Assembly (NCBI GenBank): GCA_964247135.1
Contig: CAXTTL010000045.1
Coordinates: 1-25,378 of the forward strand
Origin: an uncultured Deinococcales bacterium
Lineage (GTDB): Bacteria > Deinococcota > Deinococci > Deinococcales > JAAFIG01
Direction of reading: 5' to 3'
DNA length: 25,378 nucleotides
The position numbers and the translations under genes were made by a program. Under the pieces are notes generated by a model. It worked only from the letters and a program-made list of their open reading frames with translations. It did not search any database and was not told the origin of the DNA. Below are positions 785 through 25,057 of this stretch, piece by piece. Each line of letters opens with the position of its first letter. Positions within the stretch are counted from its first letter, which is position 1.

Positions 785-1813
785 ATGCTGATTTTTGTGA
801 TGCGCCGATTGCTTGCCCTGCCGCTCGTCATGCTGGCGGTCACGGCTTTGATCGTGTTGTTAATGCAGTTTCTCAGCCCCGCCCAACGTGCCGCGTCGTT
901 CGTGCGCGGCGAGCAGCAGTTGCAAAACATTGATGCGCTGGTCAAGCAGTATGGTTTGGATCAACCGTTTTACGTGCAGTATTGGCATTGGATCAACAAT
1001 GCCGCGCAGGGCAATTTGGGTTACTCGAGGGCTTCGCATCAACCCGTGATGGACACCTTGCGAGAGCGTTTTCCGGCGACGGCAGAACTTGCTTTTTATG
1101 CTTGCCTGCCGATCATCGGGATTGGCATTTGGTTGGGAACGCTGGCGGGTTTGAACAAGGACAAACTGGTCGATCAGGTGGCTCGAGTCTTGGCGGTGAT
1201 CGGCTTTTCGTTGCCGACCTTTGTGCTGGGCATTTGGTTGCTGGTGATTTTTTACGGCGTGCTGGGTTGGTTGCCTGGCTTTGGGCAACTCTCGCAGGAG
1301 AGCACCTTGCAAATTGCGATTTCTGGTTTGAAGCGTTACACGGGTTTTTTGACGCTGGACACGCTCTTAAACGGACGCCTTGATTTGTTTGTCGATGCGG
1401 TCAAGCACCTGATTTTGCCCGTCACAACCCTCACTACCATCTCGAGCGCCGGTATTTTGAAGGTCATGCGTTCGAGTTTGCTCGAGGTGTTGGGGCAGGA
1501 TTACGTGCGCACGGCTCGAGCCAAGGGTTTGTCGGAACGCATGGTCAACCTCAAGCACGCGCGGCGCAATGCGCTCTTGGCGGTGGCAACCTTGGCGGGT
1601 TTGACGGTGGCTGGCTTGCTGACGGGCGCGATCATCACCGAAACGATTTTTGCGTACCCTGGCATCGGGTCTTGGGGCGCTCAGGCGGCAACCCAACTCG
1701 ATTATCCTGGCGTGCTCGGTTTCGCGGTCTTCACGGCGCTGCTGGTGGTGGTCGCCAATCTGGTGGTCGATCTGGCTTACGGCTTGATCGATCCTCGAGT
1801 GAGGTTTGAATGA
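785..1813 (+). CDS. Peptide ABC transporter permease (OppB/DppB)
   Basis: GLDQPFYVQY, RFPATAEL, DYVRTARAKGL (EAA-loop region) and ITETIFAYPGIG motifs. SD-like GGAGA upstream. Confidence 0.95.
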   Translation: MLIFVMRRLLALPLVMLAVTALIVLLMQFLSPAQRAASFVRGEQQLQNIDALVKQYGLDQPFYVQYWHWINNAAQGNLGYSRASHQPVMDTLRERFPATAELAFYACLPIIGIGIWLGTLAGLNKDKLVDQVARVLAVIGFSLPTFVLGIWLLVIFYGVLGWLPGFGQLSQESTLQIAISGLKRYTGFLTLDTLLNGRLDLFVDAVKHLILPVTTLTTISSAGILKVMRSSLLEVLGQDYVRTARAKGLSERMVNLKHARRNALLAVATLAGLTVAGLLTGAIITETIFAYPGIGSWGAQAATQLDYPGVLGFAVFTALLVVVANLVVDLAYGLIDPRVRFE

Positions 1814-2823
1814 TTTCCAGCGCTCCAATTCTTGAAGCCGCTCGAGTCACCAAGGAACCCTGGTGGGAATCTCGGGTGGTCAGACGTTTCAGGCGCAACA
1901 CCCTGGCGATGTTGGGCTTGGCAATCATGGTCTTGTTTGCCCTGATGGCGGCATTTGCGCCCCTGCTTGCTCCGCCCGAGCAAGCTTGCGCCCGCGATCT
2001 GGGCATCACCAATCGATCAAGCGTCTACAGCCTCACCAACTCGAGTTTCTGGCAGGTGATGTTCCGCCCGCCGGAGAACTGTTTTGTCATGCCGCGCATC
2101 AGTTTTTCGCCGATTCCGACACCGCCTGGGGTCGGCGGTCGGGTGTTTGGCACGTCCAACGGGTATGACATCAAGTACGGTTTGGTCTGGGGCGCTCGAA
2201 CCGCATTTTTTCTGGGTTTTACCGTCATTATTTCCACGCTTTGCATCGGAACGTTGATCGGCAGTTTGGCGGGCTATTTTGGCGGCTGGCTCGACAATCT
2301 GTTCATGCGTTTTACCGATGTGGTGTTTGCCTTTCCTGGTTTGGTGTTGACCATTGTTTTAATTGCGATTTTCGGGCAAAGTTTAAACAACATCATTTTA
2401 TCCTTGGTGCTGGTCGGTTGGAGCACCTACGCCCGCTTGTTGCGCGGCGAGATTCTGCGTGTGCGTCGCCTCGAGTACGTCGAGGGCGCTCGAGCTTTGG
2501 GGGCACGCGATGCCCGAATTATTCTTTGGCATGTCTTGCCCAATTCACTGACCGCTTTGACCGTACAAGCCACGCTCGACATGGGTTCTGTGGTGCTCTC
2601 GGCGGCGGCGTTGTCGTTCTTGGGGTTGGGAACGCCGCTGGGCTACAGCGATTGGGGGCAACTCATCAATTTTACCAGGGGATTCTTGCAGGGCGTTCCA
2701 GGGCAACCCTGGGCGTACTGGTACGTTTCGTTTTTCCCTGGCTTGGCACTGATTTTGTGGGGACTGTCCTGGAATCTACTCGGCGATGCCCTTCGTGATG
2801 CACTCGACCCTCGAGCGAGATGA
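1810..2823 (+). CDS. Peptide ABC transporter permease (OppC/DppC)
   Basis: EYVEGARALGA EAA motif, HVLPNS and ALSFLGLG motifs. ATGA overlap with the upstream permease. Confidence 0.95.
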   Translation: MISSAPILEAARVTKEPWWESRVVRRFRRNTLAMLGLAIMVLFALMAAFAPLLAPPEQACARDLGITNRSSVYSLTNSSFWQVMFRPPENCFVMPRISFSPIPTPPGVGGRVFGTSNGYDIKYGLVWGARTAFFLGFTVIISTLCIGTLIGSLAGYFGGWLDNLFMRFTDVVFAFPGLVLTIVLIAIFGQSLNNIILSLVLVGWSTYARLLRGEILRVRRLEYVEGARALGARDARIILWHVLPNSLTALTVQATLDMGSVVLSAAALSFLGLGTPLGYSDWGQLINFTRGFLQGVPGQPWAYWYVSFFPGLALILWGLSWNLLGDALRDALDPRAR

Positions 2824-2985
2824 TGCGGTGTCATGCGACTGTTTGGCGTGTTGAATCCCAAGTCAGTTAAGATGATTGCTGAACCCTGAGCTGTTTGATG
2901 CTCGAGCGAACCATGATTTCATTCGGCGCTCGAACCATTTGATTCTCGAACTTGATATCATCGTTTTTTTAACAGGAGCGACCCC

Positions 2986-3609
2986 GTGAAGCACTTTACC
3001 CAGGACATCACCAGAGCCTCAAAAACCAGAAAGCGTCGCCGCAGCAAAGTCCCAGAGCGTAAATTTTCCCGTTCGCTCGAGCTTGATGCCAGCGATGTGC
3101 TCGAGGTTGATCTGATGTCCGAATGGCTGGATTGCTTGACGGGTTTTGGCAATTACGAACCCAAAAAAGTACAGTCCGAGGCTCGAGGTAAGACGTTTAA
3201 AAACTATTTTGCCAACCTCGAGTTCGATCAGCAAAAACGCACCGCCGATTTGGTGTTTGACAGCGCCCTGGGCAAGCTCGAAGCCACGCGTTGGTATGTG
3301 CGCCCAAGCCTCGAGTTGATGCTTGAGCTGTGCAAGAACGGTTTTGAAAACGCGTTTGCCCATCGGCGCACGGAACTCGAGAACATGTTCTTGGATCAGG
3401 CGGCGTTTGAGGCGTGGCTCGAGGCGCGTCAGGGCAGCAAAGCCCCCAGGGGACGGGCGTTTTTGTACACCTGGCGTTACGCGATTTTGCTTTGGAATGT
3501 TTTGAACGCGCTGCATTCGCCGTTCTCGAGCGAAATTTTAACCAAACTCTTAAAACTTCATCGCTTATGGCGTGAAAAATTGCGATCTCACAGCCCTCAA
3601 CTCGAGTAA
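2986..3609 (+). CDS. Hypothetical protein
   Basis: 207-aa ORF with AGGAG upstream of a GTG start. No family recognised. Confidence 0.65.
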   Translation: MKHFTQDITRASKTRKRRRSKVPERKFSRSLELDASDVLEVDLMSEWLDCLTGFGNYEPKKVQSEARGKTFKNYFANLEFDQQKRTADLVFDSALGKLEATRWYVRPSLELMLELCKNGFENAFAHRRTELENMFLDQAAFEAWLEARQGSKAPRGRAFLYTWRYAILLWNVLNALHSPFSSEILTKLLKLHRLWREKLRSHSPQLE

Positions 3610-5392: not shown

Positions 5393-7030
5393 ATGAGCAA
5401 CCTGCCAAAGAATCTGATCCACAACGCCGCCGCACTGGTTCAACGAGGGCTAAGGTTTTTGCCAGGCGATGCACCAAAAACCGTGGTGCTCGAGTTGCGG
5501 GGAGCGTATCCAATCAGTCGTCCCGCCAATCCATTGCCAATTCCAATTCAATTGCCCGGACAAAAGAAAATCACGACCTTGACTGATCTACGCGATCAAC
5601 TCGAGCGGCTGGCGAAAATGCCCAGCCTGTCTGAACTGGTGGTGCTCGAGCGCGGTTTTGAGGGCGGTTTTGCCAGTGCGTTTGCGGTGCGCGAACTGTT
5701 CCAGAAGTTTCGTCAAAGCGGCAAACGCATCACGTTTTATGCCGACGAAATTGGCAACCTCGGTTTGTACCTGGGAAGCGCCTGTGACCGCTTGGTAACA
5801 CTGTCCGAAGGACAGATCACAGCCGTCGGTTTGGCTGCCAGGGTGGTGTTTTTGGGCGAAACCCTGAAAAAAATTGGCATCGAACTCGAGGTTGAACGGC
5901 GCAGCGAATTCAAGAATGCCCCAGAACGGTTTACGGCAACCAGTTTCAGTGCGGGTCACCGCCAGAACGTCACTGGCTTGCTCGAGGGTTTGTACGATCA
6001 CTGGCTCGAGACGGTTTCAACAGGGCGCAAGTTGTCCACAGATGCTTTGCGGGCGGCTGTGGACAACGCGCCCTTGCTTTCCGAGCAGGCGCTCGAGGCT
6101 GGTTTGATCGACCAAATTGCCTTTGAAGACGAACTGACGTTGAACGCCGTACCCGTCCAGGAGGCATTGCGCTTTGCGCCCTCGAGTTTGCATTGGCACG
6201 CGCCCGAAAGCATTGCCCTGATCTCGCTCGAGGGTTCGATTGTGGACGGCGAATCGCGCAACGTGCCCATTCCCATCCCGTTGTTTGGCGGCAAGCAAGC
6301 TGGCGGGTACTCAATCGCTCAGGCGTTGCGTGCCGCAGCCCAGGACAAGAACATCAAAGCCATCGTCTTCCAGATTGATTCCCCTGGCGGCAGTGCCCTG
6401 GCATCCGAATTGATCTGGCGCGAGGTTTCTCGAGCCAAACAGGTCAAACCCGTGATTGCCGTGATGGGTGAGTACGCCGCCTCGGGCGGATATTATGTCG
6501 CCTGTGCCGCCAGCAAGATTCTGGCGGCACCAAATACGGTCACGGGCAGCATCGGCGTGTTTAACCTTCACGCCAACAATCAAAAACTGTGGGAGCGATT
6601 GGGTTTCATGCCCGAAACCATCAAGCTCTCAAATCACGCCGATTTTTTCAGTCCAGACCGTCCACTTTCTGCATCCGAAAACGCCAAAAATGTTGAATCG
6701 GTGCAACGGGTTTACGATACCTTTCGTACTCGGGTTGCGGCTGGGCGCGCCAAAAGTTTGGAAGAGGTCGAAACCCTGGCTCGAGGTCGGGTTTGGACGG
6801 GTTTGCAAGCCAAAGCAAATGGTTTGGTGGACGAGATTGGTACAGTGTTTGATGCGATAGAACTTGCCCAAAAACTCAGCGGCTTGCCTGAACGTGCGCC
6901 CGTGCTTCATTTCACGCCGCCAACAAAATTTATTGCCGCCACAGACTTGAATGCACTTGCCAAAATGCTCGAGACGCGCACCAGAATTTGGGCGATCATG
7001 CCAGAATTGCTCGAGGTTGTTTTGAAATAA
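5393..7030 (+). CDS. sppA: Signal peptide peptidase SppA (protease IV, S49, tandem domain)
   Basis: IDSPGGSALASELI, AASGGYYVA, TGSIGV and GRVWTG motifs. Confidence 0.93.
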   Translation: MSNLPKNLIHNAAALVQRGLRFLPGDAPKTVVLELRGAYPISRPANPLPIPIQLPGQKKITTLTDLRDQLERLAKMPSLSELVVLERGFEGGFASAFAVRELFQKFRQSGKRITFYADEIGNLGLYLGSACDRLVTLSEGQITAVGLAARVVFLGETLKKIGIELEVERRSEFKNAPERFTATSFSAGHRQNVTGLLEGLYDHWLETVSTGRKLSTDALRAAVDNAPLLSEQALEAGLIDQIAFEDELTLNAVPVQEALRFAPSSLHWHAPESIALISLEGSIVDGESRNVPIPIPLFGGKQAGGYSIAQALRAAAQDKNIKAIVFQIDSPGGSALASELIWREVSRAKQVKPVIAVMGEYAASGGYYVACAASKILAAPNTVTGSIGVFNLHANNQKLWERLGFMPETIKLSNHADFFSPDRPLSASENAKNVESVQRVYDTFRTRVAAGRAKSLEEVETLARGRVWTGLQAKANGLVDEIGTVFDAIELAQKLSGLPERAPVLHFTPPTKFIAATDLNALAKMLETRTRIWAIMPELLEVVLK

Positions 7031-7119
7031 GCTCAAACATCAATTTATCTAACGCATGAATTCAGGGCATGACCTAAACACCGTCTGGATGTTTTGAAAC
7101 TTTCTGCTACAATCCAACC

Positions 7120-7446
7120 ATGATTCTCGAGCCAATCAAATCACCTTTGCGCGAAGAGCGTGGGGTTCTTCTCGTTGGCAAAACTCGAGTTGCTTTTGAA
7201 AGCCTATGGGCAGCCTATCAACGCGGTGAATCGCCCGAAGCCATACAGGAGAATTTTTCAAGCTGTTCCCTCGAAGAAATTTACGCCGTGATTGCCCATG
7301 CGCTTGCCAAGCCAGTAGAAATCAAAGCGTATCTCGAGCGCCGAATGCTCGAAGACGCGGCAAGTCTAGAACTTGTCAGACAAGAACCCAAAAGCACAGC
7401 CTTGCGGACGAAAATTTTGGATCGAGCGGCAACGCTTCAAAAGTGA
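7120..7446 (+). CDS. DUF433 domain protein (VapB45-like antitoxin)
   Basis: VGKTRV...G.SPE.I...F..L..IYAVIA pattern. TACAAT box 6 nt before ATG. Overlaps the DUF5615 gene. Confidence 0.85.
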   Translation: MILEPIKSPLREERGVLLVGKTRVAFESLWAAYQRGESPEAIQENFSSCSLEEIYAVIAHALAKPVEIKAYLERRMLEDAASLELVRQEPKSTALRTKILDRAATLQK

Positions 7447-7790
7447 TTTGTTTTGCCAGCGACGAAAATTTGCATGGTGCGATTGTGACGGGTTTGAAAC
7501 GCAGAATCCCAAATCTCGATTTGGTTCGTATTTGGGATGTCATTCCAATGGCGACAGACCTCGAAGTGCTCGAATGGTGCTTTGTGCAAAATCGTGTGCT
7601 TCTCACCCATGATGTCAACACCTTGCGTGCCGATGCGTATGAGCGGCTCGAGCAGGGATATGGTATTGCTGGAGTATTGCTCATTCCAACGCAATTGCCC
7701 ATCGCTGTTGTCTTGGATGATCTCGAGACGATTGCCTTATGCAGTGAGCAAGAAGATTGGGTTGACGCTGTTTTATTTTTGCCCTTATGA
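7443..7790 (+). CDS. DUF5615 PIN-like protein (VapC45-like toxin)
   Basis: F.SDENL, D..VLEW, RVLLTHD and GVLLI motifs. GTGA overlap with DUF433. Confidence 0.85.
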   Translation: MICFASDENLHGAIVTGLKRRIPNLDLVRIWDVIPMATDLEVLEWCFVQNRVLLTHDVNTLRADAYERLEQGYGIAGVLLIPTQLPIAVVLDDLETIALCSEQEDWVDAVLFLPL

Positions 7791-7877
7791 GCCAAACTTT
7801 CGCTCCAAATACTCGAGCACCATAGGATCAACTTTTCCCGCTTCCACCATGCGTTCTTCGAGATTTTCCACGCCAGC
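7785..7877 (-). pseudogene. Orphan duplicate of the DUF1028 gene 3' end
   Basis: Encodes AGVENLEERMVEAGKVDPMVLEYLERKFGS*, versus AGVENLEERMVEAGKLDPVVLEYLERKFQ* in the intact gene. 7794-7877 aligns to 8460-8543 at 70/84 nt by hand alignment. Confidence 0.9.
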
Positions 7878-7893
7878 CAAAGCCAAGAAAAAA

Positions 7894-8196
7894 TTATGGC
7901 AAATGAATATCGTTGCTGCGCGTGTCATAAATCCGTAAAATCCTGACTTCCATTTCTGGCTCATGAACGGTATACAACAAAGCTTTGGGGAATCCTTTAA
8001 GCAGCATTCGCCGTACTTGCAGACCATTGATTTCAACAACAACCCGAAATGCCAATGGAAATGTCTCGAGGGTTGCAAAACCAGATGTTAACGCTTGCAT
8101 GAAACGGTTTTTGAAGTGGTTTGAAATGAGAGCGTATTGTTCGGACAGAGATGCGATGTCTTGCTCGGCTTCTTCCTCGAGTAAAACCCAGTACAT
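7894..8196 (-). CDS. RelE/ParE-family type II toxin
   Basis: Start re-called at ATG 8196 (TGATG overlap with the antitoxin stop). EAEQDI, FP, RRMLLKGFP..LLY and ILRIYDTR patterns. Confidence 0.85.
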   Translation of the reverse strand: MYWVLLEEEAEQDIASLSEQYALISNHFKNRFMQALTSGFATLETFPLAFRVVVEINGLQVRRMLLKGFPKALLYTVHEPEMEVRILRIYDTRSNDIHLP

Positions 8197-8408
8197 CAAT
8201 CCATTTCTCGCATGAATTCGCGCCAAGGTTTGGCTTCTTTTGGGGATTGTTGCATTCGTGCGATGCGTTGCTCGAGAATCATTTTTTCTTGCTCAGGCAG
8301 TGGCGAATCATTCAAGGGTTCGGCAAGTTGTTCCCACAAGAAATCAAGCAACTCAAATTGTTCTTCGAGCGGCATGTTTTGAACGGTTTCACGCAAGGAC
8401 GTGTTCAT
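8196..8408 (-). CDS. Addiction-module antitoxin (TIGR02574-like)
   Basis: LEEQFELLDFLWEQL...LEQR...PW pattern. TAACAT box 6 nt before ATG. Coupled to the toxin. Confidence 0.85.
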   Translation of the reverse strand: MNTSLRETVQNMPLEEQFELLDFLWEQLAEPLNDSPLPEQEKMILEQRIARMQQSPKEAKPWREFMREMD

Positions 8409-8453
8409 ACGTTTATGTTAGAACCAAGCTTCTAAAAACACAAGATTGAAGTG

Positions 8454-9335
8454 CTATTGAAACTTGCGCTCGAGGTATTCAAGCACCACAGGGTCAAGTT
8501 TCCCAGCTTCCACCATGCGTTCCTCGAGATTTTCCACACCCGCAATTGTCAGCAGTGCTTGCTGTGATTCCTCGCGCCACTGACCATCAGGCTCGGTTTT
8601 CAAATATCCTGCTTTGAACAACACCCGCTCGAGCCGCAAGGCAATTTCACCCTCGAGCGGAATCAGATTCTCGAGATGTGGGCGTTTAAACAATAACCTG
8701 TGAATCGACAGCAGACGCTGCAATTCGGGTATCGGGTCGCCGTGATCGTCCACGCGCAAGTCGATCATGCGGTCATTGAAACCTGCGTAACCGCCTTTGA
8801 CTCGAGCCACGTAAAGGGCTGCCGATTGTCGTCCTCGAGCGTCACCGCCAGCCCGGTCTGCGGCAAGCAAAGCGGCGAGAAGGCGTTCAGGAAATTGCAA
8901 ACTCGGGTTTTGCTCGAAGGTTTCAGCCAGCGCATCGACCACCTGCGCACCTGTCAGCAAATTGCCTTGCGCCGCGTAACCCGCGCCCGTGCGACCTCCA
9001 GCCCAGGCGTGACACTCCGAACCCGTGAACGTAAAACCCTCATTGCTCGAGTTGACCAGCCCGTACTGACGTTGCTGGTATTCGGCATCGTTCGCCTCAA
9101 ATTCTGCAGCGATGTCTTCCAAACTCCAACCCGCGCCCATCAATTCCAAAGCCCGAGGTCCAAAGCTGGTGTTGGCATAGGACTGGGTTGCGACTGCACC
9201 CAGACCGCCCATCACCCACGGCACAACCGCGCCGACCGCCAAGAATTTGCTGGCGACCGCCACGCCCAAATCGCCAGTGCTGGCGTCCCTGGCGACTATC
9301 GAAAACGTGCTGACCCTGCGAATGCTCGAGTTCAT
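8454..9335 (-). CDS. DUF1028 (Ntn-hydrolase-like) protein with C-terminal putative peptidoglycan-binding domain
   Basis: TFSIVARD, GVAVASKFLAVGAVVP, AQGNLL, GGDARGRQSAA and DLRVDDH motifs. Start re-called at ATG 9335 (TAAAAT box 5 nt upstream). Confidence 0.9.
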   Translation of the reverse strand: MNSSIRRVSTFSIVARDASTGDLGVAVASKFLAVGAVVPWVMGGLGAVATQSYANTSFGPRALELMGAGWSLEDIAAEFEANDAEYQQRQYGLVNSSNEGFTFTGSECHAWAGGRTGAGYAAQGNLLTGAQVVDALAETFEQNPSLQFPERLLAALLAADRAGGDARGRQSAALYVARVKGGYAGFNDRMIDLRVDDHGDPIPELQRLLSIHRLLFKRPHLENLIPLEGEIALRLERVLFKAGYLKTEPDGQWREESQQALLTIAGVENLEERMVEAGKLDPVVLEYLERKFQ

Positions 9336-9373
9336 GCTGTATTTTACGCCCAAAGTTGTGCTAAAACTCTTTT

Positions 9374-9649
9374 ATGATTACCGCTTTTGTTCTGGTTCGT
9401 GCCAAACGAGATGTCATTCCCGAAACCGCCGAGGCGCTCGCCGCCATGAAACACGTCGCCGAATGTTACAGCGTGACCGGCGACTGGGACATCGTGGTGA
9501 TCTTGCGTTTCCCGCAATTCGAGGATTTGGACGATATTGTGACGGGTCAACTGCGCAAGATTCCTGGCATCGAACGCACCAGCACGATGCTGGGTTTTAA
9601 AGCCTACTCGAGTGCCTTGCTCGATTCTGCGTTTAACATCGGCGGATGA
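9374..9649 (+). CDS. Lrp/AsnC ligand-binding domain protein (no HTH)
   Basis: MITAFVLV, YSVTGDWDIV and GIERTSTM motifs. 91 aa. Confidence 0.9.
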   Translation: MITAFVLVRAKRDVIPETAEALAAMKHVAECYSVTGDWDIVVILRFPQFEDLDDIVTGQLRKIPGIERTSTMLGFKAYSSALLDSAFNIGG

Positions 9650-10200
9650 ACGATACACTTGCCGCCCTTTTGAAACCTCGGGTGCCGCTGCCCGCCGCGC
9701 CGCGAAATTTTCAGAGCCTCGAGGGGTATTCCAACATCAAACGCTTCTGGGATTGGCTCGAGGCGTTTCACAACCAGGGTCTAATTGTGCGCGTGCCGAC
9801 CCGAGTGCCGATAGAACACTGCCGCCGCACCGTGGTCGGGATTGAGCGCTTCAACGCGGGCGGACTGGTCGATGACCTCGCCATCCTGAACGCTTTGCTG
9901 GACGACGACCACATGACGCTCGAGATTTTCAATTTGGTTCCCGAAGCCGCCGACGCCATGCAGTCCTTGCTCGAGGGTGACAAGCAACCGCTCGTCAGCA
10001 TTCTCTCGAGCGCCTACAAACTGGTTTTTGACGTGCAAGTTGCCTTCACTTCCCGCCGCGAACTTCGTATCAAAGCCGACACGCGATTTGTGGCGCTCGA
10101 GGAAGATGTTTTTCCGCTCAATTGGGATTTGAAAGCCGTGCGGTTGCGGCGCGACGATTGGCGGATGTTGCTTGACCGTGCGGCGATGGGTTTGAAATAA
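9646..10200 (+). CDS. Hypothetical protein
   Basis: 184-aa ORF with an ATGA overlap to the Lrp-domain gene. No family recognised. Confidence 0.75.
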   Translation: MNDTLAALLKPRVPLPAAPRNFQSLEGYSNIKRFWDWLEAFHNQGLIVRVPTRVPIEHCRRTVVGIERFNAGGLVDDLAILNALLDDDHMTLEIFNLVPEAADAMQSLLEGDKQPLVSILSSAYKLVFDVQVAFTSRRELRIKADTRFVALEEDVFPLNWDLKAVRLRRDDWRMLLDRAAMGLK

Positions 10201-10354
10201 ACTTTTGAGGCTCGAGTTAAAACCACGATCAAAACAATCGGTTTCAGCCTTGATTCAGTTTGGGCTTTCGCCAAATTTAGTTTCGTTGTGCATAGTTTTC
10301 CTTGCCGAGCAAAACAATTGAAGCAAAATTGTGACGCTCAGAAAGGAAGTTTTT

Positions 10355-10618
10355 ATGACCGCTAAAAATGAAAAGGACACCAAGAAGACTGGCGCGAGCA
10401 CCTCGAACAAAGCTGGTGTTGGGACTGGCAGCACTGGTAAAACGGGTAAAACCACTAAAACCAGCAAAAGCCAAAATTCATCTTCACGCGACACGACTCC
10501 CAAAGGCGACAGCAGCTCGAGGGGTGAACATGGCGACGACGCGATGCGTCCAATGGATCGCTCCGATACCGAGAGCCAAAACTCGAGCACCGAGGGACGG
10601 GACAGCCGCAACGGGTGA
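10355..10618 (+). CDS. Small hydrophilic low-complexity protein
   Basis: AAGGAAG RBS before ATG 10355. T/K/S/G/D/R-rich with almost no hydrophobic residues. Confidence 0.6.
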   Translation: MTAKNEKDTKKTGASTSNKAGVGTGSTGKTGKTTKTSKSQNSSSRDTTPKGDSSSRGEHGDDAMRPMDRSDTESQNSSTEGRDSRNG

Positions 10619-17678: not shown

Positions 17679-18080
17679 ATGGTCGCTTTGAAGAAAACCA
17701 CTTCCTTCACCGCCTCGAGATTCTTATTGATTCTTGGCTTGGGCGTGACATTTTTTGCGGTATATGTGCAGGTTCGGGTTTCGGCGCAAAAGATCATCCC
17801 AACCTATTACACGGACGTTCAACCGATCCTCGAGAAAAACTGTGTCTCGTGCCATGTCAAAGGCGGCATTGCGCCGTTTGTCCTCGATAACCCAAAAGAG
17901 GCTGTGGCTCGAGCCGAGCGCATCGCGCAAGTCACGCAGTCTGGTTACATGCCGCCGTACCCTCCTGGGCAAGATTCGCAACCGTTTTTGAACGAACGCC
18001 GATTGGGTGTTGCATCCAAACAAATTCTTTTCGACTGGGCAAAAGCGGGCGCTCCGCTTGGTACGGCACCGAAAAAATAA
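17679..18080 (+). CDS. Exported/membrane-anchored c-type cytochrome
   Basis: N-terminal hydrophobic segment, CVSCH heme motif, GGIAPF, MPPY (possible Met ligand) and W...GAP. Confidence 0.85.
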   Translation: MVALKKTTSFTASRFLLILGLGVTFFAVYVQVRVSAQKIIPTYYTDVQPILEKNCVSCHVKGGIAPFVLDNPKEAVARAERIAQVTQSGYMPPYPPGQDSQPFLNERRLGVASKQILFDWAKAGAPLGTAPKK

Positions 18081-18105
18081 AATGCCAAAAAGTAAAGGGA
18101 GAGCC

Positions 18106-19344
18106 ATGAAAAAAATTCCGACCCGAGCGATGGCGGCAATGCTGGTGGCAGGATTTGGAGCGCTCAGTTTGGGCTTTGCGACCTTTGGCGGTCTGCCCCC
18201 AGAGGCAAGTTTGCATAATTTTGACCTGGCTGGCAGCAACCACATGCACCGCGTCAACCAGAACATTTCTGACGTTGCCTGGAGTTTAAATCCGCCAACC
18301 TCGAGCAAGTTAGCCACTGCCAAACCCGACGCGATTCTGACCCCAGAAAGCGCTTATACCCCAGACTCGAGCAGCAACGACGATTACCACTGCTTTTTGC
18401 TCGATCCAAAACTGACCCGCGATACCTTTGTGACCGCCACCAACGTCAAACCAGACCAAGCCAGCATTGTGCATCACGTGATTTTATTTAAAATCGGACC
18501 CGAAAATGCTGCCGAGGCTCGAGCCAAAAACCAAGCCTCCGGCGGTAAAGGTTGGACGTGTTTTGGCGGTTCGGACGTTGGCGATATTCGCACCACCGCC
18601 AACAGTTGGTTGGCGGCGTGGGCGCCAGGCTCGAGCGCCCAGACGATGCCAGAAGGCATCGGCGCACTGCTCACAAAAGGCTCATTGATCGTGATGCAAG
18701 TGCATTACAACCTCACCACTGGCGTCAAACCAGACCGCACCAGCGCCGAATTGACCTATGCGCCCGAGGGAACCCAACTGACCCCAATTCAGACGATACT
18801 CGGCTATGCGCCAGTCGAAATTCCTTGCCCCGACGGTCTGAACAGCCCGCAGTGCGACCGTCAGACGGTCTTGAACGAAAACGTTCAAAAATACGGGCAG
18901 AGGGTTGCTTACATCCCGTTAGGCTTGCTGTACGTCTGCAAGAAAAAACTCGAGGATTACCCCAAATCGGTCGGCGATGCCAGCGAGATCAAAACCTCTT
19001 GCGACCGCGAAGTCAAAAAAGCCAGCACCCTCTACGCCGTGGCTGGACACATGCACCTGCGCGGGCAAGACATCAAACTCGAGTTAAACCCTGGCACGGG
19101 TCGCGCCAAAACCTTGTTGCACATTCTCAAATGGGACTTTCACTGGCAGGGCAATTATTGGTTTAAAACCCCGCTCGAGATTGAACCTGGCGATGTCTTG
19201 CGGCTTTCGTGCACGTATGACAACAGCGTGGCGGGTCAACCCGTGTTGAACGGTGTACAAGCCAGCCCGCATTACATCACTTGGGCGGAAGGCACAACCG
19301 ACGAGATGTGCCTGAGCATTCTGACCTCGGCGCCGAAAAAATAA
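18106..19344 (+). CDS. Secreted copper type II ascorbate-dependent monooxygenase-like protein (PHM/DBH family)
   Basis: Start re-called at ATG 18106 (AGGGAG RBS, signal peptide). CuH ligands VHHVI and QVHY, CuM ligands HMH and EMC, plus WDFHWQ. Confidence 0.88.
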   Translation: MKKIPTRAMAAMLVAGFGALSLGFATFGGLPPEASLHNFDLAGSNHMHRVNQNISDVAWSLNPPTSSKLATAKPDAILTPESAYTPDSSSNDDYHCFLLDPKLTRDTFVTATNVKPDQASIVHHVILFKIGPENAAEARAKNQASGGKGWTCFGGSDVGDIRTTANSWLAAWAPGSSAQTMPEGIGALLTKGSLIVMQVHYNLTTGVKPDRTSAELTYAPEGTQLTPIQTILGYAPVEIPCPDGLNSPQCDRQTVLNENVQKYGQRVAYIPLGLLYVCKKKLEDYPKSVGDASEIKTSCDREVKKASTLYAVAGHMHLRGQDIKLELNPGTGRAKTLLHILKWDFHWQGNYWFKTPLEIEPGDVLRLSCTYDNSVAGQPVLNGVQASPHYITWAEGTTDEMCLSILTSAPKK

Positions 19345-21553: not shown

Positions 21554-22375
21554 TTAAATCACGTCCAAACCAAGCCCATCAAAAAACCCGCGCAACGGAT
21601 AACTCGAGATGGCACCGCGAATCCCACCCAAACTGAAATTCTCGAGGCTCATGCGTTTTTGCATTTGTTCGCGTTGCGCTTCGGGCATCTGACCCATTCT
21701 GGATGTCGGACCCACCTGCGAGGCGTGTGCCTTTAATGCCGCCATCTTCTGCTCGAGGTGGGCTGCAATGTCGTGACTGAAGGCAATTGTGTCCTCGGAA
21801 ACACCGTACAATTCTGGCTCGAGTCCAGGCGTTGGCGTGGCGCTCGAGTTAAACATCATGCGGGCAATCTCGATGGGGAACGCCGTGTAAAACAAACGCT
21901 TTGGCGCGTCCGGCAAATGTCCGCTCGAGAAAAACGCCGCCAGCGCCGCGCTGTGAATCACCAAATGATCCGGATGCCCGTAACCGCCGTGAGGATCAAA
22001 CGTCAGCATCACCTGCGGTTTGACCTGTTCAATCACCGCCTTGATTTTGGCTTCAACCTCGAGCGGGTCGGCATTGATGCTCGCCAGAGGATCGTCTTTG
22101 CGCAGACGCTCGAGTCGTCCAGAGTCGTGATAGCCCAAAAAAATTGGCGGGTTGATGCCCAGGGCTTGGCAGGCGTTTTGAAGCTCAGTTTCACGTAGCG
22201 CACCCACGTCTTTAACTTCGCCCAAAACTGGATCGGTGACTTTGCCAGCCTCACCACGGGTCGAACTGATCAACGTCACGTCCACACCCAAGCTTGCATA
22301 ATGCGCCAGCGTGCCGCCGCTCGAGAAGGCTTCATCGTCAGGGTGGGCGAACACGGCAAGCAAAGAGGGTTTCAC
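21554..22375 (-). CDS. PIG-L/LmbE family deacetylase (MshB/BshB-like)
   Basis: AHPDDE, TRGEAG, GGYGHPDH and AHASQ motifs. Confidence 0.93.
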   Translation of the reverse strand: MKPSLLAVFAHPDDEAFSSGGTLAHYASLGVDVTLISSTRGEAGKVTDPVLGEVKDVGALRETELQNACQALGINPPIFLGYHDSGRLERLRKDDPLASINADPLEVEAKIKAVIEQVKPQVMLTFDPHGGYGHPDHLVIHSAALAAFFSSGHLPDAPKRLFYTAFPIEIARMMFNSSATPTPGLEPELYGVSEDTIAFSHDIAAHLEQKMAALKAHASQVGPTSRMGQMPEAQREQMQKRMSLENFSLGGIRGAISSYPLRGFFDGLGLDVI

Positions 22376-22443
22376 CAGATCAGTATGACCGATTTGGAAG
22401 GCGCGAAAAGACTTTTCAAATTCATTTCACCAGCCATAAAAGA

Positions 22444-22629
22444 CAGGGCAACCGCAAAGTCCGAATTTTGCCCATTTTGTCGGAATTCTCGTTTGCTTGC
22501 GGGCGAAGACAAGCTTCGCCCCTACGAAAAAACATTGTCCTGTAGGGGTGAACCTTGTGTTCACCCTTGCGACGGGAAGACCTCCATACATTGTTTGGTT
22601 CATTGGTTTACGACTTTGCGGTTGCCCTG
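22444..22629. mobile_element. MITE (186 bp), probably ISAs1-family derived, containing two GTAG REPs
   Basis: Perfect 18-bp terminal inverted repeats CAGGGCAACCGCAAAGTC (22444-22461) and GACTTTGCGGTTGCCCTG (22612-22629). Flanking 10-bp direct repeat CCATAAAAGA (22434-22443, 22630-22639). No transposase. Confidence 0.85.
22501..22566. repeat. Two divergent GTAG-family REP palindromes inside the MITE
   Basis: GGGCGAAGACAAGCTTCGCCCCTAC (22501-22525) and GTAGGGGTGAACCTTGTGTTCACCC (22542-22566). Confidence 0.75.
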
Positions 22630-22845
22630 CCATAAAAGAAACGCAGCCGCAAAGTTACGGTTCTTTTATGGCAAAATAGTGCTTTATCTTGACTTGAAAC
22701 GCTCGAGTTCAGTTCAAGGCACAGGTTTTTGCATTGCATTTCAGCTCAGTTTGATCCAAGAGCTAATCATTGCTACCTGACGTTGGTATGGTTTTTTGTT
22801 GCTAAATTTTGGGAAAAATGAACTGACTGGAAAAGCTTGAGGCAC

Positions 22846-22875
22846 AAAAAACCGCCAAGGTTGGTCTTGGCAGTT
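22846..22875 (-). terminator. Intrinsic terminator after the small peptide gene
   Basis: Minus strand AACTGCCAAG-ACCAAC-CTTGGCGGTT-TTTTG, 30 nt after the stop codon. Confidence 0.75.
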
Positions 22876-22905
22876 GGAAACTCGAGAGTGAATTTTTAGC
22901 TCGAA

Positions 22906-23040
22906 TTAGGGTTGAGTACATGGTGCAGAAGTTCGGCAGTGCGCTGCTATGTCTTTTGGTGATCCAGCAAACGCTGCACTCAGCGACAAGACGGCAAGTA
23001 AAGTGGAGATGATGGAAATTGCTTTAACAAATTTCTTCAT
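22906..23040 (-). CDS. Small secreted propeptide (44 aa: signal peptide plus 19-aa CX5C peptide)
   Basis: AGGAGG RBS before ATG 23040. MKKFVKAISIISTLLAVLSLSAAFA|GSPKDIAAHCRTSAPCTQP, with an A-F-A signal peptidase I site and its own terminator. Confidence 0.8.
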   Translation of the reverse strand: MKKFVKAISIISTLLAVLSLSAAFAGSPKDIAAHCRTSAPCTQP

Positions 23041-23086
23041 AAAACCTCCTGTGTATGCTTGAGAATTTAAGCTCTTGCACGTCTGG

Positions 23087-23120
23087 AGCTTACTTTTGAA
23101 GGTGGGAAAAAACTGGGAAA
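23087..23120 (-). promoter_or_regulatory. Candidate activator-dependent promoter of the peptide gene
   Basis: Minus strand TTTCCCA-gttt-TTTCCCA (11-bp period), then 10 nt, then a TAAGCT -10-like box. Confidence 0.5.
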
Positions 23121-23123
23121 CAC

Positions 23124-24889
23124 TCAAACCACCCGCAGCCCCAAACGTTCCAAACTTTGCCGCAGCAAATCGCTTGGCGCGAGTCCAAACTCTTCGGACA
23201 GCATTCGCGCATACGCACCGTAAGCCTGGTTTGCCGCCGCCACGCCGCCGAGCGCCAAATGCACCCGAATCAAACCCAGATGACTGACCTCGGACAGCGG
23301 CTCGAGTTCGATGGCACGGCGGTAGATTTTCAGCGCCTCGCGCGATTGTGTCTGCTCGAGTTGCTCCGCCAAGGTCGCGGCGGCTGCCACGGTTTGCTCG
23401 AGGACCCGCGTGCGAATTTCGGCGACCCATTCGGTGTTGACCCCAGGCAAAAATTCGCCGTGGTAAGCCTCAAGCGCCGCCTGCAATTGCAGCATGTTGC
23501 CCGACTCGAGGGCGTGTTGTGCCAGCTCAAAATCGAGCTTTGGGCTTAATTGCGGCGCGAGTGAATAGAGTTTGTTCTCGAAAGGAAAGGCGTTGAATCC
23601 AACCTCTGGGTGCTCGCTCAGCGCGGCGCGTAAACGCCTTGCCGCAACCCGAAAATACTCGTGATGACGGGTTTCAATCGAACCGTCCCAAAGCGCGTTC
23701 ATGATCTCCTCGCGGCTGGATGCGCCGTGCAGCGCCACAAAAATCAGCAACTCGCCCGCCTTGGCAAATGGAATCCGAATTGGCGTGCCGTTCAGACTGA
23801 TTTGCAGTTTGCCCAAGGTCAGAATCTCGAGTTCAAAAGTTGGTTGAGGGATTGCGGCTGCAATTTCGGGTGCTGCTCGGGTTGGAGAATTCTCCACAAA
23901 ACGACTGAAGCGCTCGTTAAACCAACCGCGTTCGATGCAGCTTGCGAACAGATCATGCAGCGGTTCGGCATCGACCATCAGAACGTTGTCGTGCGGCATC
24001 GCGTCAAGGCTGACAATCAAACCTTTGACCTGTTCAAACTCGAGCGAATTTTCTTGACGTGCAATCTCTGCCAGATACGCTCGAGCGCGGGGCTTATGGG
24101 CGGATTCCTCGGATTTTTCCAGCGCCCCACTCAAATATTGACGTGCCGCCTCGAGGTTGTGAGTCCAGAAATTGGCAATGCCCTGATAAAAAGCGTAGAC
24201 CCCTTGAAGGTCGCTGTTGGATTGAGAGTCGTGACCCAGACGCTCCAAGATGCCGGTGGCTCGGGTTGGCTGGTTTGAACGCAGCCAGCTTTCGCTTTGT
24301 TTGAGTTCGATGATCTGCGCCAAGACCTGATCGCCCAGTTCTTGCGCACTGGCAATGCAGTTTTGGTAAGCGGCGATGGCTTGTTCAAAGTTTTGCTGCC
24401 AGAAGTAAACATCCCCCCGAAGCTCGAGAAAGTACGGCAGCAAACGGCTTTGTTCGCGCATTCCAAGTGATATGCCCTGTTCGATCAGGGAAAAAGCTTC
24501 GCCGGTACGGTTTTGCAGGTAACGCAAACTTGCCAGATCAATCAAAAGCGGCAAGGTCCGAACGGGTGTGCCCAGGGCTTCCTACACCTCCATCGCCCGC
24601 AAAATTGATTTCTCGCATTCAAACCACTGCCCCAGGCGGTACTGAATCAATTTTAAGCTGCTGAGGTTGTTGCCCAACTCGCCCAGGTTGTCGTGGTCTT
24701 CCGCCCTTCAATGCGGGCAAACTGCGCCAGCAAGGTGGTCTTGCCATAACCAGAGGGCGCGATCAAAGCCGTCAGTTGCAGATCGCTGGCAGCCTCGAGT
24801 TGCGAAAGTAACCTGGCGCGTTCCAACTCGAAGCGCAGTTTCTTGGGTATGACACTCGAGAGGTCATCATTTGCCCTGCTGCCTGACAT
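23124..24889 (-). pseudogene. Disrupted P-loop (MalT/STAND-like)-TPR-wHTH-BTAD transcriptional regulator
   Basis: The N-terminus has Walker A APSGYGKTTLLAQF. The frame switches near 24693-24702 directly into TPR-like sequence (EDHDNLGELGNNLSSLKLIQYRLGQW...), then hits an in-frame TAG at 24582-24584. After it come an intact TPR region, LEILTLG/SREEIMNALW wHTH and BTAD (YHGEFLPG, LEPLSE) region to 23124. Confidence 0.85.
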
Positions 24890-25057
24890 GAAAACCATCT
24901 TATTCGATTGGTGATGATTCAGAATCAAAGTCATGTTCAACCTGTCTGCAAGGCGCGATTTTTGTAGCGACCTTATACCTTAGGTTAGCAATAGACTGGT
25001 CACACGGTGGTCACAAAAGGAATACTTTCGATGCTTGCCAGATTAAGCTTTAAATTT

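Follow-up and report, generated by a model that had tools for sequence, protein, structure and literature searches.

A STAND-SARP Regulator and an Adjacent Small Gene for a Predicted Exported Peptide in Deinococcales: The Remnant of a Possible Peptide-Feedback Cassette

Introduction

Circuits in which a cytoplasmic receptor responds to a peptide pheromone are known, to our knowledge, essentially from Bacillota. In the RRNPP systems—such as PlcR-PapR, ComR-ComS, Rgg-SHP, and Rap-Phr—an intracellular TPR regulator, bearing an N-terminal HTH or phosphatase, is encoded next to a small gene for an exported propeptide, and related receptors are paired with unrelated peptide families; the mature peptide is re-imported and binds the TPR domain of its receptor. 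The term Deinococc- does not occur in the searched text of two RRNPP surveys, and literature searches returned no peptide-signalling system described for Deinococcota and no description of a regulator/peptide cassette like the one presented here.

Other described systems resemble this locus in their parts. MalT/LAL-type STAND activators hold an N-terminal NTPase followed by a helical-repeat sensor and a LuxR-type HTH as output domain. The SdpABC system from Bacillus subtilis yields the SDP peptide, whose mature form carries a CX5C disulfide. AfsR from Streptomyces is built from a SARP DNA-binding domain, an NTPase of the STAND class, and a TPR sensor, in the order SARP-NOD-TPR, and its gene adjoins the small gene afsS. 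According to excerpts of PMC10936776, SARP targets consist of direct repeats spaced by one turn of DNA (11 bp), adjoining a −10 element; AfsR activates afsS from such a box, with a weak −10 and without a good −35, and AfsS is not the ligand of AfsR.

Here, we describe a locus in a stretch of 25,378 nucleotides from an uncultured Deinococcales bacterium (hereafter, the window), where a regulator, a predicted box, a peptide gene, and a terminator are all located on the minus strand. Its closest anatomy is that of AfsR-afsS, while its closest logic is that of RRNPP.

The Regulator

Intact relatives of the regulator are proteins of ~1,010–1,027 residues. In the window, the gene is split into an N-terminal fragment holding residues 1–79 with the Walker A motif GYGKT (24698..24934, minus strand; 80% identity to the relative in locus L001 by tblastn), and a C-terminal part comprising a TPR superhelix and a SARP region with wHTH and BTAD (23124..24704, minus strand; 77% identity to L001 residues 502–1027). 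The BTAD domain (PF03704) is recognized in residues 354–466 of the 476-aa ORF with 49.3 bits (E 8.5e-13; cutoff 22.1), and TPR_2 with 29.2 bits against 27, whereas Trans_reg_C is weak by sequence (14.7 bits vs 26.2), and the P-loop is represented by the Walker A segment only, with weak matches to AAA_16 and nSTAND_NTPase5. An AF2 model of the C-terminal part (pLDDT 90.8) had as best Foldseek matches the SARP domain of AfsR (8hvr_I, E 3.7e-8, TM 0.75 on target) and EmbR, aligned over ~245 columns. In this model, a wHTH directly N-terminal to the BTAD and an overall SARP fold are predicted.

The NTPase of the intact L001 regulator matches MalT (NF003420, residues 29–399, E 2.3e-20), although its 72 bits are far under the MalT equivalog cutoff of 537, and in a PDB sequence search with the whole L001 regulator only the MalT NTPase was matched (8bob, E 1.9e-9). 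An architecture NOD-TPR-wHTH-BTAD is supported, as the preliminary description had read it from the window. Like MalT, these proteins begin with an NTPase followed by a helical-repeat sensor, but their output domain is a SARP instead of a LuxR-type HTH. They share all three modules with AfsR (with fold matches of the SARP domain to 8hvr_I and 8k60), although arranged as NOD-TPR-SARP, and at the sequence level the kinship is limited to domains. By homology to L001, the regulator probably starts at the ATG at 24934, not at 24889 as given in that description.

That this copy is broken had also been proposed, and two lesions now account for it. An internal deletion of 1,280 nt has removed residues ~80–501 of the 1,027-aa relative and shifted the frame. 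Its junction (24706..24714, minus strand), located by blastn against L001, falls between short similar sequences (GGGCG.AA / GGGCTGAA), with window 25378–24714 corresponding to L001 2896–3559 and window 24706–23102 to L001 4840–6444. Downstream, a TAG nonsense codon (24583..24585, minus strand) occupies a position held by Tyr in the relatives (TAT in L001; MEVYEAL in P0002). Judged from these lesions, the window regulator is dead. As fragments of AfsR consisting only of the SARP activate transcription in vitro (excerpts of PMC10936776), a truncated but active regulator was considered; this reading was not adopted, there being no plausible ribosome site ahead of the TTG at 24554.

The Peptide Gene

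Following the stop codon TGA of the regulator (23126..23124) and a gap of 83 nt, a 44-aa propeptide is encoded at 22906..23040 (minus strand), enclosed by a longer ORF of 174 aa (22906..23430). The preliminary description had singled out this separately punctuated gene for its strong RBS, its Sec signal ending in AFA, and its own terminator, and each of these elements was recovered. A Shine-Dalgarno sequence AGGAGG (23045..23050, minus strand) lies 4 nt ahead of the ATG, within a CAGGAGG conserved in L001. The predicted signal peptide (23040..22966, minus strand) holds three Lys among residues 1–6, a hydrophobic core, and a cleavage site between AFA and G; with a net charge of +3 and a maximal 10-residue hydropathy of 2.48, a crude heuristic score, it appears to be of the Sec type. 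Secretion and processing would thus leave a mature 19-mer (22965..22909, minus strand) ending in HCRTSAPCTQP, ahead of the stop codon (22908..22906, minus strand). The gene ends in an intrinsic terminator (22844..22875, minus strand) with a stem of ten pairs at 22875..22850 and a T-run, which folds at −15.2 kcal/mol (z = −2.85; equalled by one of 200 shuffles) and is conserved in L001 (window 22886–22838 matching L001 6743–6791 with 86% identity by blastn). A search of Rfam over 22300–23200 gave no match.

The peptide family comprises three known sequences: the window peptide, P0077 from L001 (65 aa; Deinococcales MAG), and the metagenome protein P0078 (67 aa). The same signal peptide and an 11-residue C-terminus, HCxxSxxCTQP, are common to all of them, and the linker in between varies by 22–23 residues. 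Since the longer relatives end in the same C-terminus, the window peptide is an internally shortened copy, and the suspicion that the 44-aa ORF is what remains of the front of a larger secreted protein was rejected. An alignment of 38 codons shows 11, 7, and 19 differences at the first, second, and third codon positions, with the third dominating; 11 codons differ only synonymously, such changes sitting at C-terminal residues that are conserved, and the reading frame is kept across the length difference. This pattern looks like purifying selection. Moreover, start, RBS, and stop are kept in L001, where the ORF is annotated (P0077, source ncbi). Conservation in L001 and P0078 puts the ORF beyond chance, and on these comparisons we regard it as a genuine gene.

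A phmmer search with the 44-aa peptide against 1.84 billion representatives gave a single match, P0076 (E 8.9e-4), which was judged spurious, being a 466-aa repeat protein that matches only ...SxPCxQP. A profile built from the two-peptide alignment matched only the L001 peptide and P0078, the best score of the 65-aa peptide in the ESM Atlas was 0.78, below the useful range, and tblastn of the peptides against plasmids gave no match or self matches only. Neither protein collection contains the peptide of the window, so that gene callers evidently skipped it, and absence from these collections is weak evidence of rarity. Against models of known peptides, the 44- and 65-aa versions had no match to SdpC (TIGR04032) at E<=1, and the Phr N-terminal model TIGR04429 gave 10.4 bits (E 0.76; cutoff 25). 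The mature peptides of the cassette are hydrophilic and conserved only at the C-terminus, a character more in keeping with a pheromone than with a membrane toxin. Closure of the Cys pair as a disulfide is a conjecture.

The Predicted Box and Promoter

Between the regulator and the peptide gene lies the direct repeat TTTCCCA-N4-TTTCCCA (23103..23120, minus strand), with a period of 11 nt, which is the sole match in the window and has no mismatches; the motif occupies the same position in seven further loci. A −10-like hexamer, TAAGCT (23087..23092, minus strand), is placed 10 nt past the second repeat, and a hexamer of the NANNNT type is found at this distance at all nine boxes. No sigma-70-type −35/−10 pair was found.

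Searched on both strands of 132,483 nt, TTCCCA-N5-TTCCCA with at most one mismatch occurs ten times, whereas 100 shuffles gave 0.36 occurrences on average and never more than 3. All ten are located at or after the 3′ end of a regulator of the family or facing a neighbouring operon. The geometry of box and −10 element matches that described for SARPs, and binding of the box by the regulator is predicted on this basis.

Recurrence and Cargo Operons

The core family was defined by a wHTH motif shared among the regulators and comprises ten loci, the window and nine others. Counted outside it were L009, L012, L013, and L014 (plasmid), whose wHTH motif differs and which lack the box, while L004 (Geodermatophilus), which matches in the BTAD part only and lacks the box, was left out of the counts; the context counts also leave out 13 closer regulator clusters, P0007–P0019 (65–87% identity). 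A pattern scan of genome contigs gave at least 604 pattern matches, with at least four confirmed loci, the nearest among the matches listed being Deinococcales MAGs, and all 14 plasmid records carrying regulator relatives are from Deinococcus; both point to a Deinococcales relative as the source of the window. Culturable, non-pathogenic carriers include D. gobiensis I-0 (plasmid P4) and Deinococcus sp. QL22.

The box precedes the next gene in eight of the ten core loci (with two mismatches in L003), and the other two lack both box and downstream gene. Behind the box, an ORF of less than 90 aa with a Sec signal is found in five of the eight. These ORFs belong to three families without kinship to one another, HCxxSxxCTQP, WPPIxWPxGG, and a third that is rich in Cys. 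The expectation that a small secreted ORF accompanies homologous regulators holds for four of the nine other core loci (L001, L007, L008, and L010), making the pairing recurrent, not universal. It fails for the remaining five, two of which have a lipoprotein of 176 or 205 aa, one a non-secreted protein of 126 aa, and two nothing. The small Cys-rich protein from L010 and these lipoproteins share a CP[GS]CG motif, a hint that some of the "peptides" are short envelope proteins. In addition, a second conserved small protein, predicted to be cytoplasmic, is encoded behind the secreted gene at L003/L010/L011 and another at L007/L008.

The genes beyond vary between loci, the small secreted gene being the recurring element. 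A distance of 280 nt separates the L001 peptide gene from a downstream operon, which is preceded by a second copy of the box. This 3.8-kb segment encodes, behind that box, a 301-aa lipoprotein, a 219-aa SdpC-family protein (TIGR04032, E 4e-13; its 49.6 bits are under the cutoff of 99.2), SdpA (92 bits vs 53), and an SdpB (252 bits vs 178) which differs from that of B. subtilis in having a DCC1-like thiol-disulfide oxidoreductase fused to it. The SdpC-like protein lacks a Cys pair, whereas the small peptide has a CX5C. In two Deinococcus plasmids, a box faces class III lanthipeptide genes, and the small peptides of L007, L008, and L010 adjoin other cargo with no Sdp genes nearby.

The Sdp-like operon fronted by the cassette of the intact relative had escaped the preliminary description, and it is lost in the window. 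In its place is a spacer of 411 nt (22427..22837, no strand assigned), delimited by blastn and containing inverted repeats; tblastn for remnants of the L001 lipoprotein and Sdp genes in the window found none. Neither an importer nor a processing protease linked to the cassette was found in the window, whose Opp/Dpp-type genes (3–2823) are generic and lie 20 kb away. The window cassette is a dead remnant, in which only box, promoter, peptide gene, and terminator are intact, and the receptor and the cargo operon have been lost. An intact paralogue of the regulator elsewhere in the genome, if present, could still drive the orphan gene.

Possible Regulatory Mechanisms

The explanation that we prefer, tentatively and with somewhat less than even confidence in the whole, is a two-gene regulatory cassette of Deinococcales with peptide feedback, of which the window holds a remnant. 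A cytoplasmic STAND activator, with a MalT-like NTPase, a TPR sensor, and a C-terminal SARP DNA-binding domain, would bind the 11-nt-spaced TTCCCA direct repeats just past its own stop codon and turn on a monocistronic gene whose product is a propeptide exported by Sec. Upon cleavage of the signal peptide, the conserved C-terminal HCxxSxxCTQP, possibly bridged between its Cys residues, would be the active product. This peptide may accumulate outside the cell and feed back on the TPR sensor, auto-inducing its own promoter together with a second boxed promoter that would drive an antagonism operon, namely, in the nearest relative that is intact, the lipoprotein and SdpC/SdpA/SdpB-like genes, and in the two Deinococcus plasmids the class III lanthipeptides. 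That the peptide is the ligand of the regulator is the least secure step; sensing of the peptide by the regulator is plausible, with the chances leaning slightly against it.

The likeness to RRNPP that had been drawn for this locus stands for its layout, an intracellular TPR regulator with an adjacent small gene for an exported propeptide. To this can be added the presumably active part at the C-terminus, the predicted operator of the regulator ahead of the peptide gene, and peptide families that are unrelated although their receptors are related. It does not extend to homology: the receptors are proteins of ~1,010–1,027 aa with NTPase and SARP in place of the N-terminal HTH or phosphatase, ComR_TPR (12.8 bits vs 26.5; E 0.093) and Phr_nterm stay below their cutoffs, only generic TPR models exceed theirs, and the fold search lists SARP proteins and TPR proteins of a generic kind but no receptor of an RRNPP system. 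By sequence homology, the cassette does not belong to RRNPP. The peptide-signalling interpretation is supported in part, by a real, secreted-looking gene and, newly, by a SARP-type box ahead of it.

The same wiring may, however, serve a peptide that is a secreted output, induced along with the toxin or RiPP operon and acting outside the cell in its own right, while the TPR domain senses something else, as in the logic of AfsR-afsS; this alternative, too, had escaped the preliminary description. We consider this possible, if clearly short of probable; by analogy, a small gene as output fits about as well as the peptide-signalling reading. The box and promoter speak for regulation only, not for sensing, and afsS is activated from an 11-bp direct-repeat box by a protein of which its product is not the ligand (excerpts of PMC10936776). 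Genes behind the box include lipoproteins and a non-secreted protein, the small cytoplasmic proteins that follow the secreted gene at several loci point the same way, and the His-Cys-Cys motif could bind metal. The product of the Deinococcales small gene carries a predicted Sec signal for export, which sets it apart from AfsS, and the phylum is another one. Against the output reading, the cargo operons already provide outputs, leaving the recurrence of unrelated tiny secreted genes in this slot unaccounted for, whereas conservation of the C-terminus only, a dispensable linker, and a hydrophilic mature peptide are typical of pheromone propeptides; the family searches gave no match pointing to another function.

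A further reading, which we hold to be improbable, takes the peptide as the substrate of SdpA/SdpB-DCC1. It would then be a small antimicrobial peptide with a disulfide, belonging to a cannibalism system of the SDP type and orphaned in the window when that operon was lost. The appeal of this reading lies in the short distance to the Sdp genes in L001, in the thiol-disulfide oxidoreductase fused to SdpB, and in the CX5C, which the SdpC-like protein is missing and mature SDP has, but the mature peptide is short and hydrophilic and has no match to the SdpC model, its gene has a terminator and a promoter of its own, and analogous peptides occur at three loci without Sdp genes nearby. Slightly less credible still is an accidental adjacency, with a small secreted protein unrelated to the regulator and repeats serving another purpose: a family of three members and two core loci without a downstream partner would allow it, but every low-mismatch box adjoins a regulator of the family, a small Sec ORF fills the same slot at five loci, and synteny with L001 covers RBS, box, and terminator. 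An untranslated ORF arising by chance in an intergenic region would agree with its absence from the protein collections and with the decay of the locus; the conserved start, RBS, and stop, the annotation in L001, the synonymous changes at conserved C-terminal residues, and the in-frame length difference make it very improbable.

Significance

Extending the preferred reading to the phylum, Deinococcota might hold an undescribed class of peptide quorum-sensing cassette, a claim that we consider rather doubtful. In it, a STAND receptor of ~1,000 aa (NTPase-TPR-SARP) would sense its own Sec-exported peptide, conserved at the C-terminus, would auto-induce via a 22-bp direct-repeat box, and would gate SdpCAB-like toxins or class III lanthipeptides, with the unrelated peptide families acting as pherotypes. 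A peptide of the HCxxSxxCTQP lineage would form a CX5C loop in this quorum-sensing reading.

If the peptides are ligands of the STAND-SARP regulators, quorum sensing by peptides would be known from one more phylum and with one more architecture of the receptor. The TPR sensor of large SARP/STAND regulators, at present poorly understood, would gain a natural class of ligands, and the way in which Deinococcus switches on toxin and lanthipeptide loci would be explained. Setting the signalling claim aside, the conserved TTCCCA box offers a directly testable regulon for an uncharacterised family of regulators, and the copy in the window illustrates the decay of such a cassette, whose peptide gene stays behind as an orphan after the loss of receptor and cargo.

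A Broken Regulator of the STAND-SARP Type

The regulator of the window survives on the minus strand as two ORFs, one of 95 residues (24940..24653) holding a Walker A segment, and another of 476 residues (24554..23124) in which TPR repeats and a BTAD domain scoring 49.3 bits (cutoff 22.1) are found. Its full-length relatives comprise 1,005–1,027 residues, with 13 clusters 65–87% identical over the query, and an intact regulator is encoded in L001, a locus from a Deinococcales MAG. The alignment with this locus falls into two blocks (window 25378-24714 with L001 2896-3559, and window 24706-23102 with L001 4840-6444), which indicates that 1,280 nt, corresponding to residues ~80–501, are gone from the window. 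Two short similar sequences flank the deletion junction, where the frame shifts, and a TAG replaces a Tyr codon at 24585..24583. The deletion, the frameshift, and the stop codon make this receptor a pseudogene, bearing out the preliminary description, which had considered this copy broken. A truncated TPR-SARP product is not assumed here, despite the in vitro activity of AfsR fragments consisting of the SARP domain alone (PMC10936776), since reading the sequence revealed no convincing ribosome site ahead of the TTG codon at position 24554.

In an AlphaFold2 model built on a 43-sequence alignment (pLDDT 90.8), the C-terminal 473 residues form a TPR superhelix, which leads into a winged helix and a helical bundle. 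Among the best PDB matches of this model are EmbR and the SARP domain of AfsR (8hvr_I, E 3.7e-8, TM 0.75 on the target, and 8k60), both AfsR entries coming from transcription complexes. The N-terminal 400 residues of the intact L001 regulator match the NTPase of MalT, the only part through which the kinship with MalT runs.

A Small Gene for a Predicted Exported Peptide Behind the Regulator

A tiny secreted-peptide gene had also been proposed behind the regulator, and its anatomy held up. The regulator TGA (23126..23124) is followed, after a gap of 83 nt and on the same strand, by a 44-codon ORF (23040..22906), concealed in the ORF list within a 174-aa ORF (22906..23430), with an AGGAGG ribosome site (23050..23045) four bases ahead of its ATG. 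The N-terminus of the product holds a Lys-rich n-region, a hydrophobic core, and an AFA|G site (crude score: net charge of +3, hydropathy peaking at 2.48), and the gene has its own terminator (22875..22850), a 10-pair hairpin plus T-run with a fold of -15.2 kcal/mol (z = -2.85). Rfam gave no match between 22300 and 23200.

The equivalent place in L001 is occupied by a 65-aa ORF with a matching ribosome site, signal peptide, and ending, and the sole further relative found is P0078, a metagenome protein of 67 residues. The three C-termini read HCRTSAPCTQP, HCTSSKPCTQP, and HCRTSANCTQP, and the window peptide is devoid of 22–23 linker residues, lost in frame. In a 38-codon alignment of the window copy with that of L001, 13 codons are unchanged, 11 carry synonymous differences only, and 14 encode another residue, with 11, 7, and 19 differences at codon positions 1, 2, and 3, respectively; synonymous changes occur at the residues conserved in the C-terminal motif (His, Cys, Ser, Thr, and Pro). 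Judged on these sequence features, the small peptide gene is real; a Cys–Cys disulfide in the mature peptide is a conjecture. Neither protein collection contains the peptide of the window, indicating that gene callers miss it and that absence from databases is a weak guide to rarity. The peptide matched no family in Pfam or NCBIfam, its comparison with the Atlas gave no lead, and an exhaustive search of 1.84 billion representatives returned only a repeat protein, judged spurious.

The literature search found no description of this regulator–peptide cassette. In anatomy, the nearest system is AfsR-afsS, from which it differs in the reversed domain order and in the predicted export of the small product, which bears a Sec signal in the Deinococcales cassette. 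In logic, the nearest are the RRNPP systems, which the preliminary description had invoked as analogous but different in architecture; that interpretation is supported in part, but membership fails on receptor homology. A search of two RRNPP surveys, supplements aside, found no mention of "Deinococc-".

A Predicted Operator Downstream of the Regulator

Directly after the regulator stop lies a direct repeat, TTTCCCA-gttt-TTTCCCA (23120..23103, minus strand), the only match in the window to TTCCCA-N5-TTCCCA. When this box was sought on both strands of the window and L001–L012 (132,483 nt, at most one mismatch), 10 matches were obtained, whereas 100 shuffles gave 0.36 on average and never more than 3. 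Nine stand at or just past the 3' end of a regulator and are oriented toward the next gene (window, L001 with two, L002 with two that overlap in three repeats, L007, L008, L010, and L011), while the tenth (L008, minus strand, 2883) faces divergent class III lanthipeptide genes. With two mismatches, the box also stands ahead of the L003 lipoprotein gene, and it points toward the lanthipeptide genes of L007 and, in L011, toward a divergent gene. Ten bases beyond the window box is the hexamer TAAGCT (23092..23087); the hexamer so placed holds A at position 2 in 9/9 cases and T at position 6 in 8/9, and a consensus scan of the window's box region found no sigma-70 -35/-10 pair. This layout is that given for SARP targets in PMC10936776, namely direct repeats with a spacing of 11 or 22 bp, near the -10 and over a poor -35. 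From the modeled fold and the positional conservation, the regulator is predicted to bind the box.

Loss of the Cargo Operon from the Window

Beyond the peptide terminator, L001 has a 3.8-kb stretch with genes for four proteins: a lipoprotein of 301 aa whose linker is poly-Pro, a 219-aa SdpC-family protein (TIGR04032, E 4e-13, under the model cutoff), SdpA (92 bits, cutoff 53), and SdpB (252 bits, cutoff 178) as a fusion with a DCC1-like thiol-disulfide oxidoreductase; they are followed by a PIG-L deacetylase gene. The second L001 box, of three repeats, precedes these lipoprotein and Sdp genes, and the region (6840-10576) is an SdpCAB-like system in a Deinococcales MAG. The Pro-rich linker of the L001 peptide (6507-6704) resembles the N-terminal linker of the lipoprotein (6987-7892; 47% over 30 residues, E 6e-5, composition correction off), which may be mere low-complexity similarity.

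In the window, a mere 411 unrelated bases lie between the terminator (22886-22838, aligned to L001 6743-6791) and the PIG-L gene (22426-21612, aligned to L001 10603-11417), and tblastn found no remnant of the four cargo genes; the upstream gluconokinase gene is retained in synteny. What remains in the window is a relic: the receptor is dead, the cargo operon is gone, and the orphaned peptide gene is still intact. The spacer (22427-22837), without a match in Rfam, holds a perfect 18-nt inverted repeat (22444-22461 / 22612-22629, 150 nt between arms) and a further 16-nt repeat (22628-22643 / 22658-22673), and may represent a mobile or structured element of small size where the deletion occurred.

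Elsewhere in the window, 20 kb from the cassette, genes of an Opp/Dpp-type ABC importer (3-2823; a family-5 solute-binding protein and two permeases) could serve peptide import, although they are generic. Adjacent DUF433 and DUF5615 genes (7120-7790) overlap by 4 nt, a pair often read as a toxin–antitoxin-like module. At 17679-19344, a small cytochrome c-like gene precedes that of a 445-aa copper type II ascorbate-dependent monooxygenase-type protein with both monooxygenase domains (PHM/DBH-like fold), a pairing that seemed unusual for a bacterium.

Distribution of the Regulator–Peptide Pairing

Genome contigs yielded at least four loci with regulator relatives, and a tblastn search of plasmids with the L001 regulator found 14 records, all from Deinococcus, ten of which were taken as L005–L014. 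Ten regulators (window, L001, L002, L003, L005, L006, L007, L008, L010, and L011) share the wHTH motif LWDGS..(H)EYF(R/K)V; L009, L012, L013, and L014 hold neither this motif nor the box. Just downstream of the distant relative in L014 (Deinococcus sp. D7000 plasmid p_3), ARAGORN called a tmRNA gene (6520-6876, tag GNNSVSYAYAA), and L012 has a similar sequence without such a call.

The proposed adjacency of a small secreted ORF recurs among these ten core loci, five of which show it, but is not universal. The first co-oriented downstream gene is a small Sec-signal ORF belonging to the HC...CTQP family in the window and L001, one of 56 aa, annotated as hypothetical and ending in WPPIWWPGGG, in L007, one of 62 aa with WPPIGWPDGG, absent from the plasmid's gene table, in L008, and a Cys-rich one of 85 aa in L010. 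In L003 and L011, it encodes a lipoprotein (176 or 205 aa) containing a CPSCG motif, and in L002 and L005 non-secreted proteins of 126 and 103 aa, respectively; L006 has no downstream gene, and both L005 and L006 are without the box.

The cargo varies by locus, from the SdpCAB-like genes of L001 to LanKC and between two and five precursor genes for class III lanthipeptides, oriented divergently to the regulator, in L007 (1-2745, Deinococcus sp. QL22 plasmid) and L008 (1-2627, D. gobiensis I-0 plasmid), which the box faces with two mismatches and one, respectively. In L003, a gene divergent from the D. oregonensis regulator (1485-3266, minus strand) encodes a 593-aa protein bearing a Thiol_cytolysin domain (E 5.4e-15). 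Behind the secreted gene, a small cytoplasmic protein is conserved in L003 (6789-7247), L010 (6201-6596), and L011 (6371-6697), with 47% identity between the last two (E 3e-30), and a second such family, of 85-aa proteins, in L007 (6177-6434) and L008 (6173-6430; E 5e-5 to each other). These proteins might be the real AfsS-like effectors.

Possible Roles of the Peptide

The preferred, tentative reading is that the peptide is a putative autoinducer of the regulator. It is favored because the small secreted gene recurs while the cargo changes, conservation is confined to the peptide C-terminus, the linker being dispensable, unrelated peptide families stand beside related receptors of one DNA specificity, and the mature peptides are hydrophilic and not toxin-like. 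Against it count the lipoproteins and non-secreted products in the downstream slot, together with AfsR-afsS, where the small gene is the output (PMC10936776); both points speak for a somewhat less probable alternative, in which the peptide is an output of the regulator and not its ligand. That it is a substrate of the SdpAB-DCC1 machinery appears quite improbable; the likeness to SdpABC concerns the neighboring cargo of L001, not the peptide.

Autoinduction and output, the two leading readings, share a supported core, in which, through a 22-bp direct-repeat box, a SARP-type STAND activator would drive the monocistronic gene of a small exported peptide, and further boxes would place an antagonism operon under the same activator.
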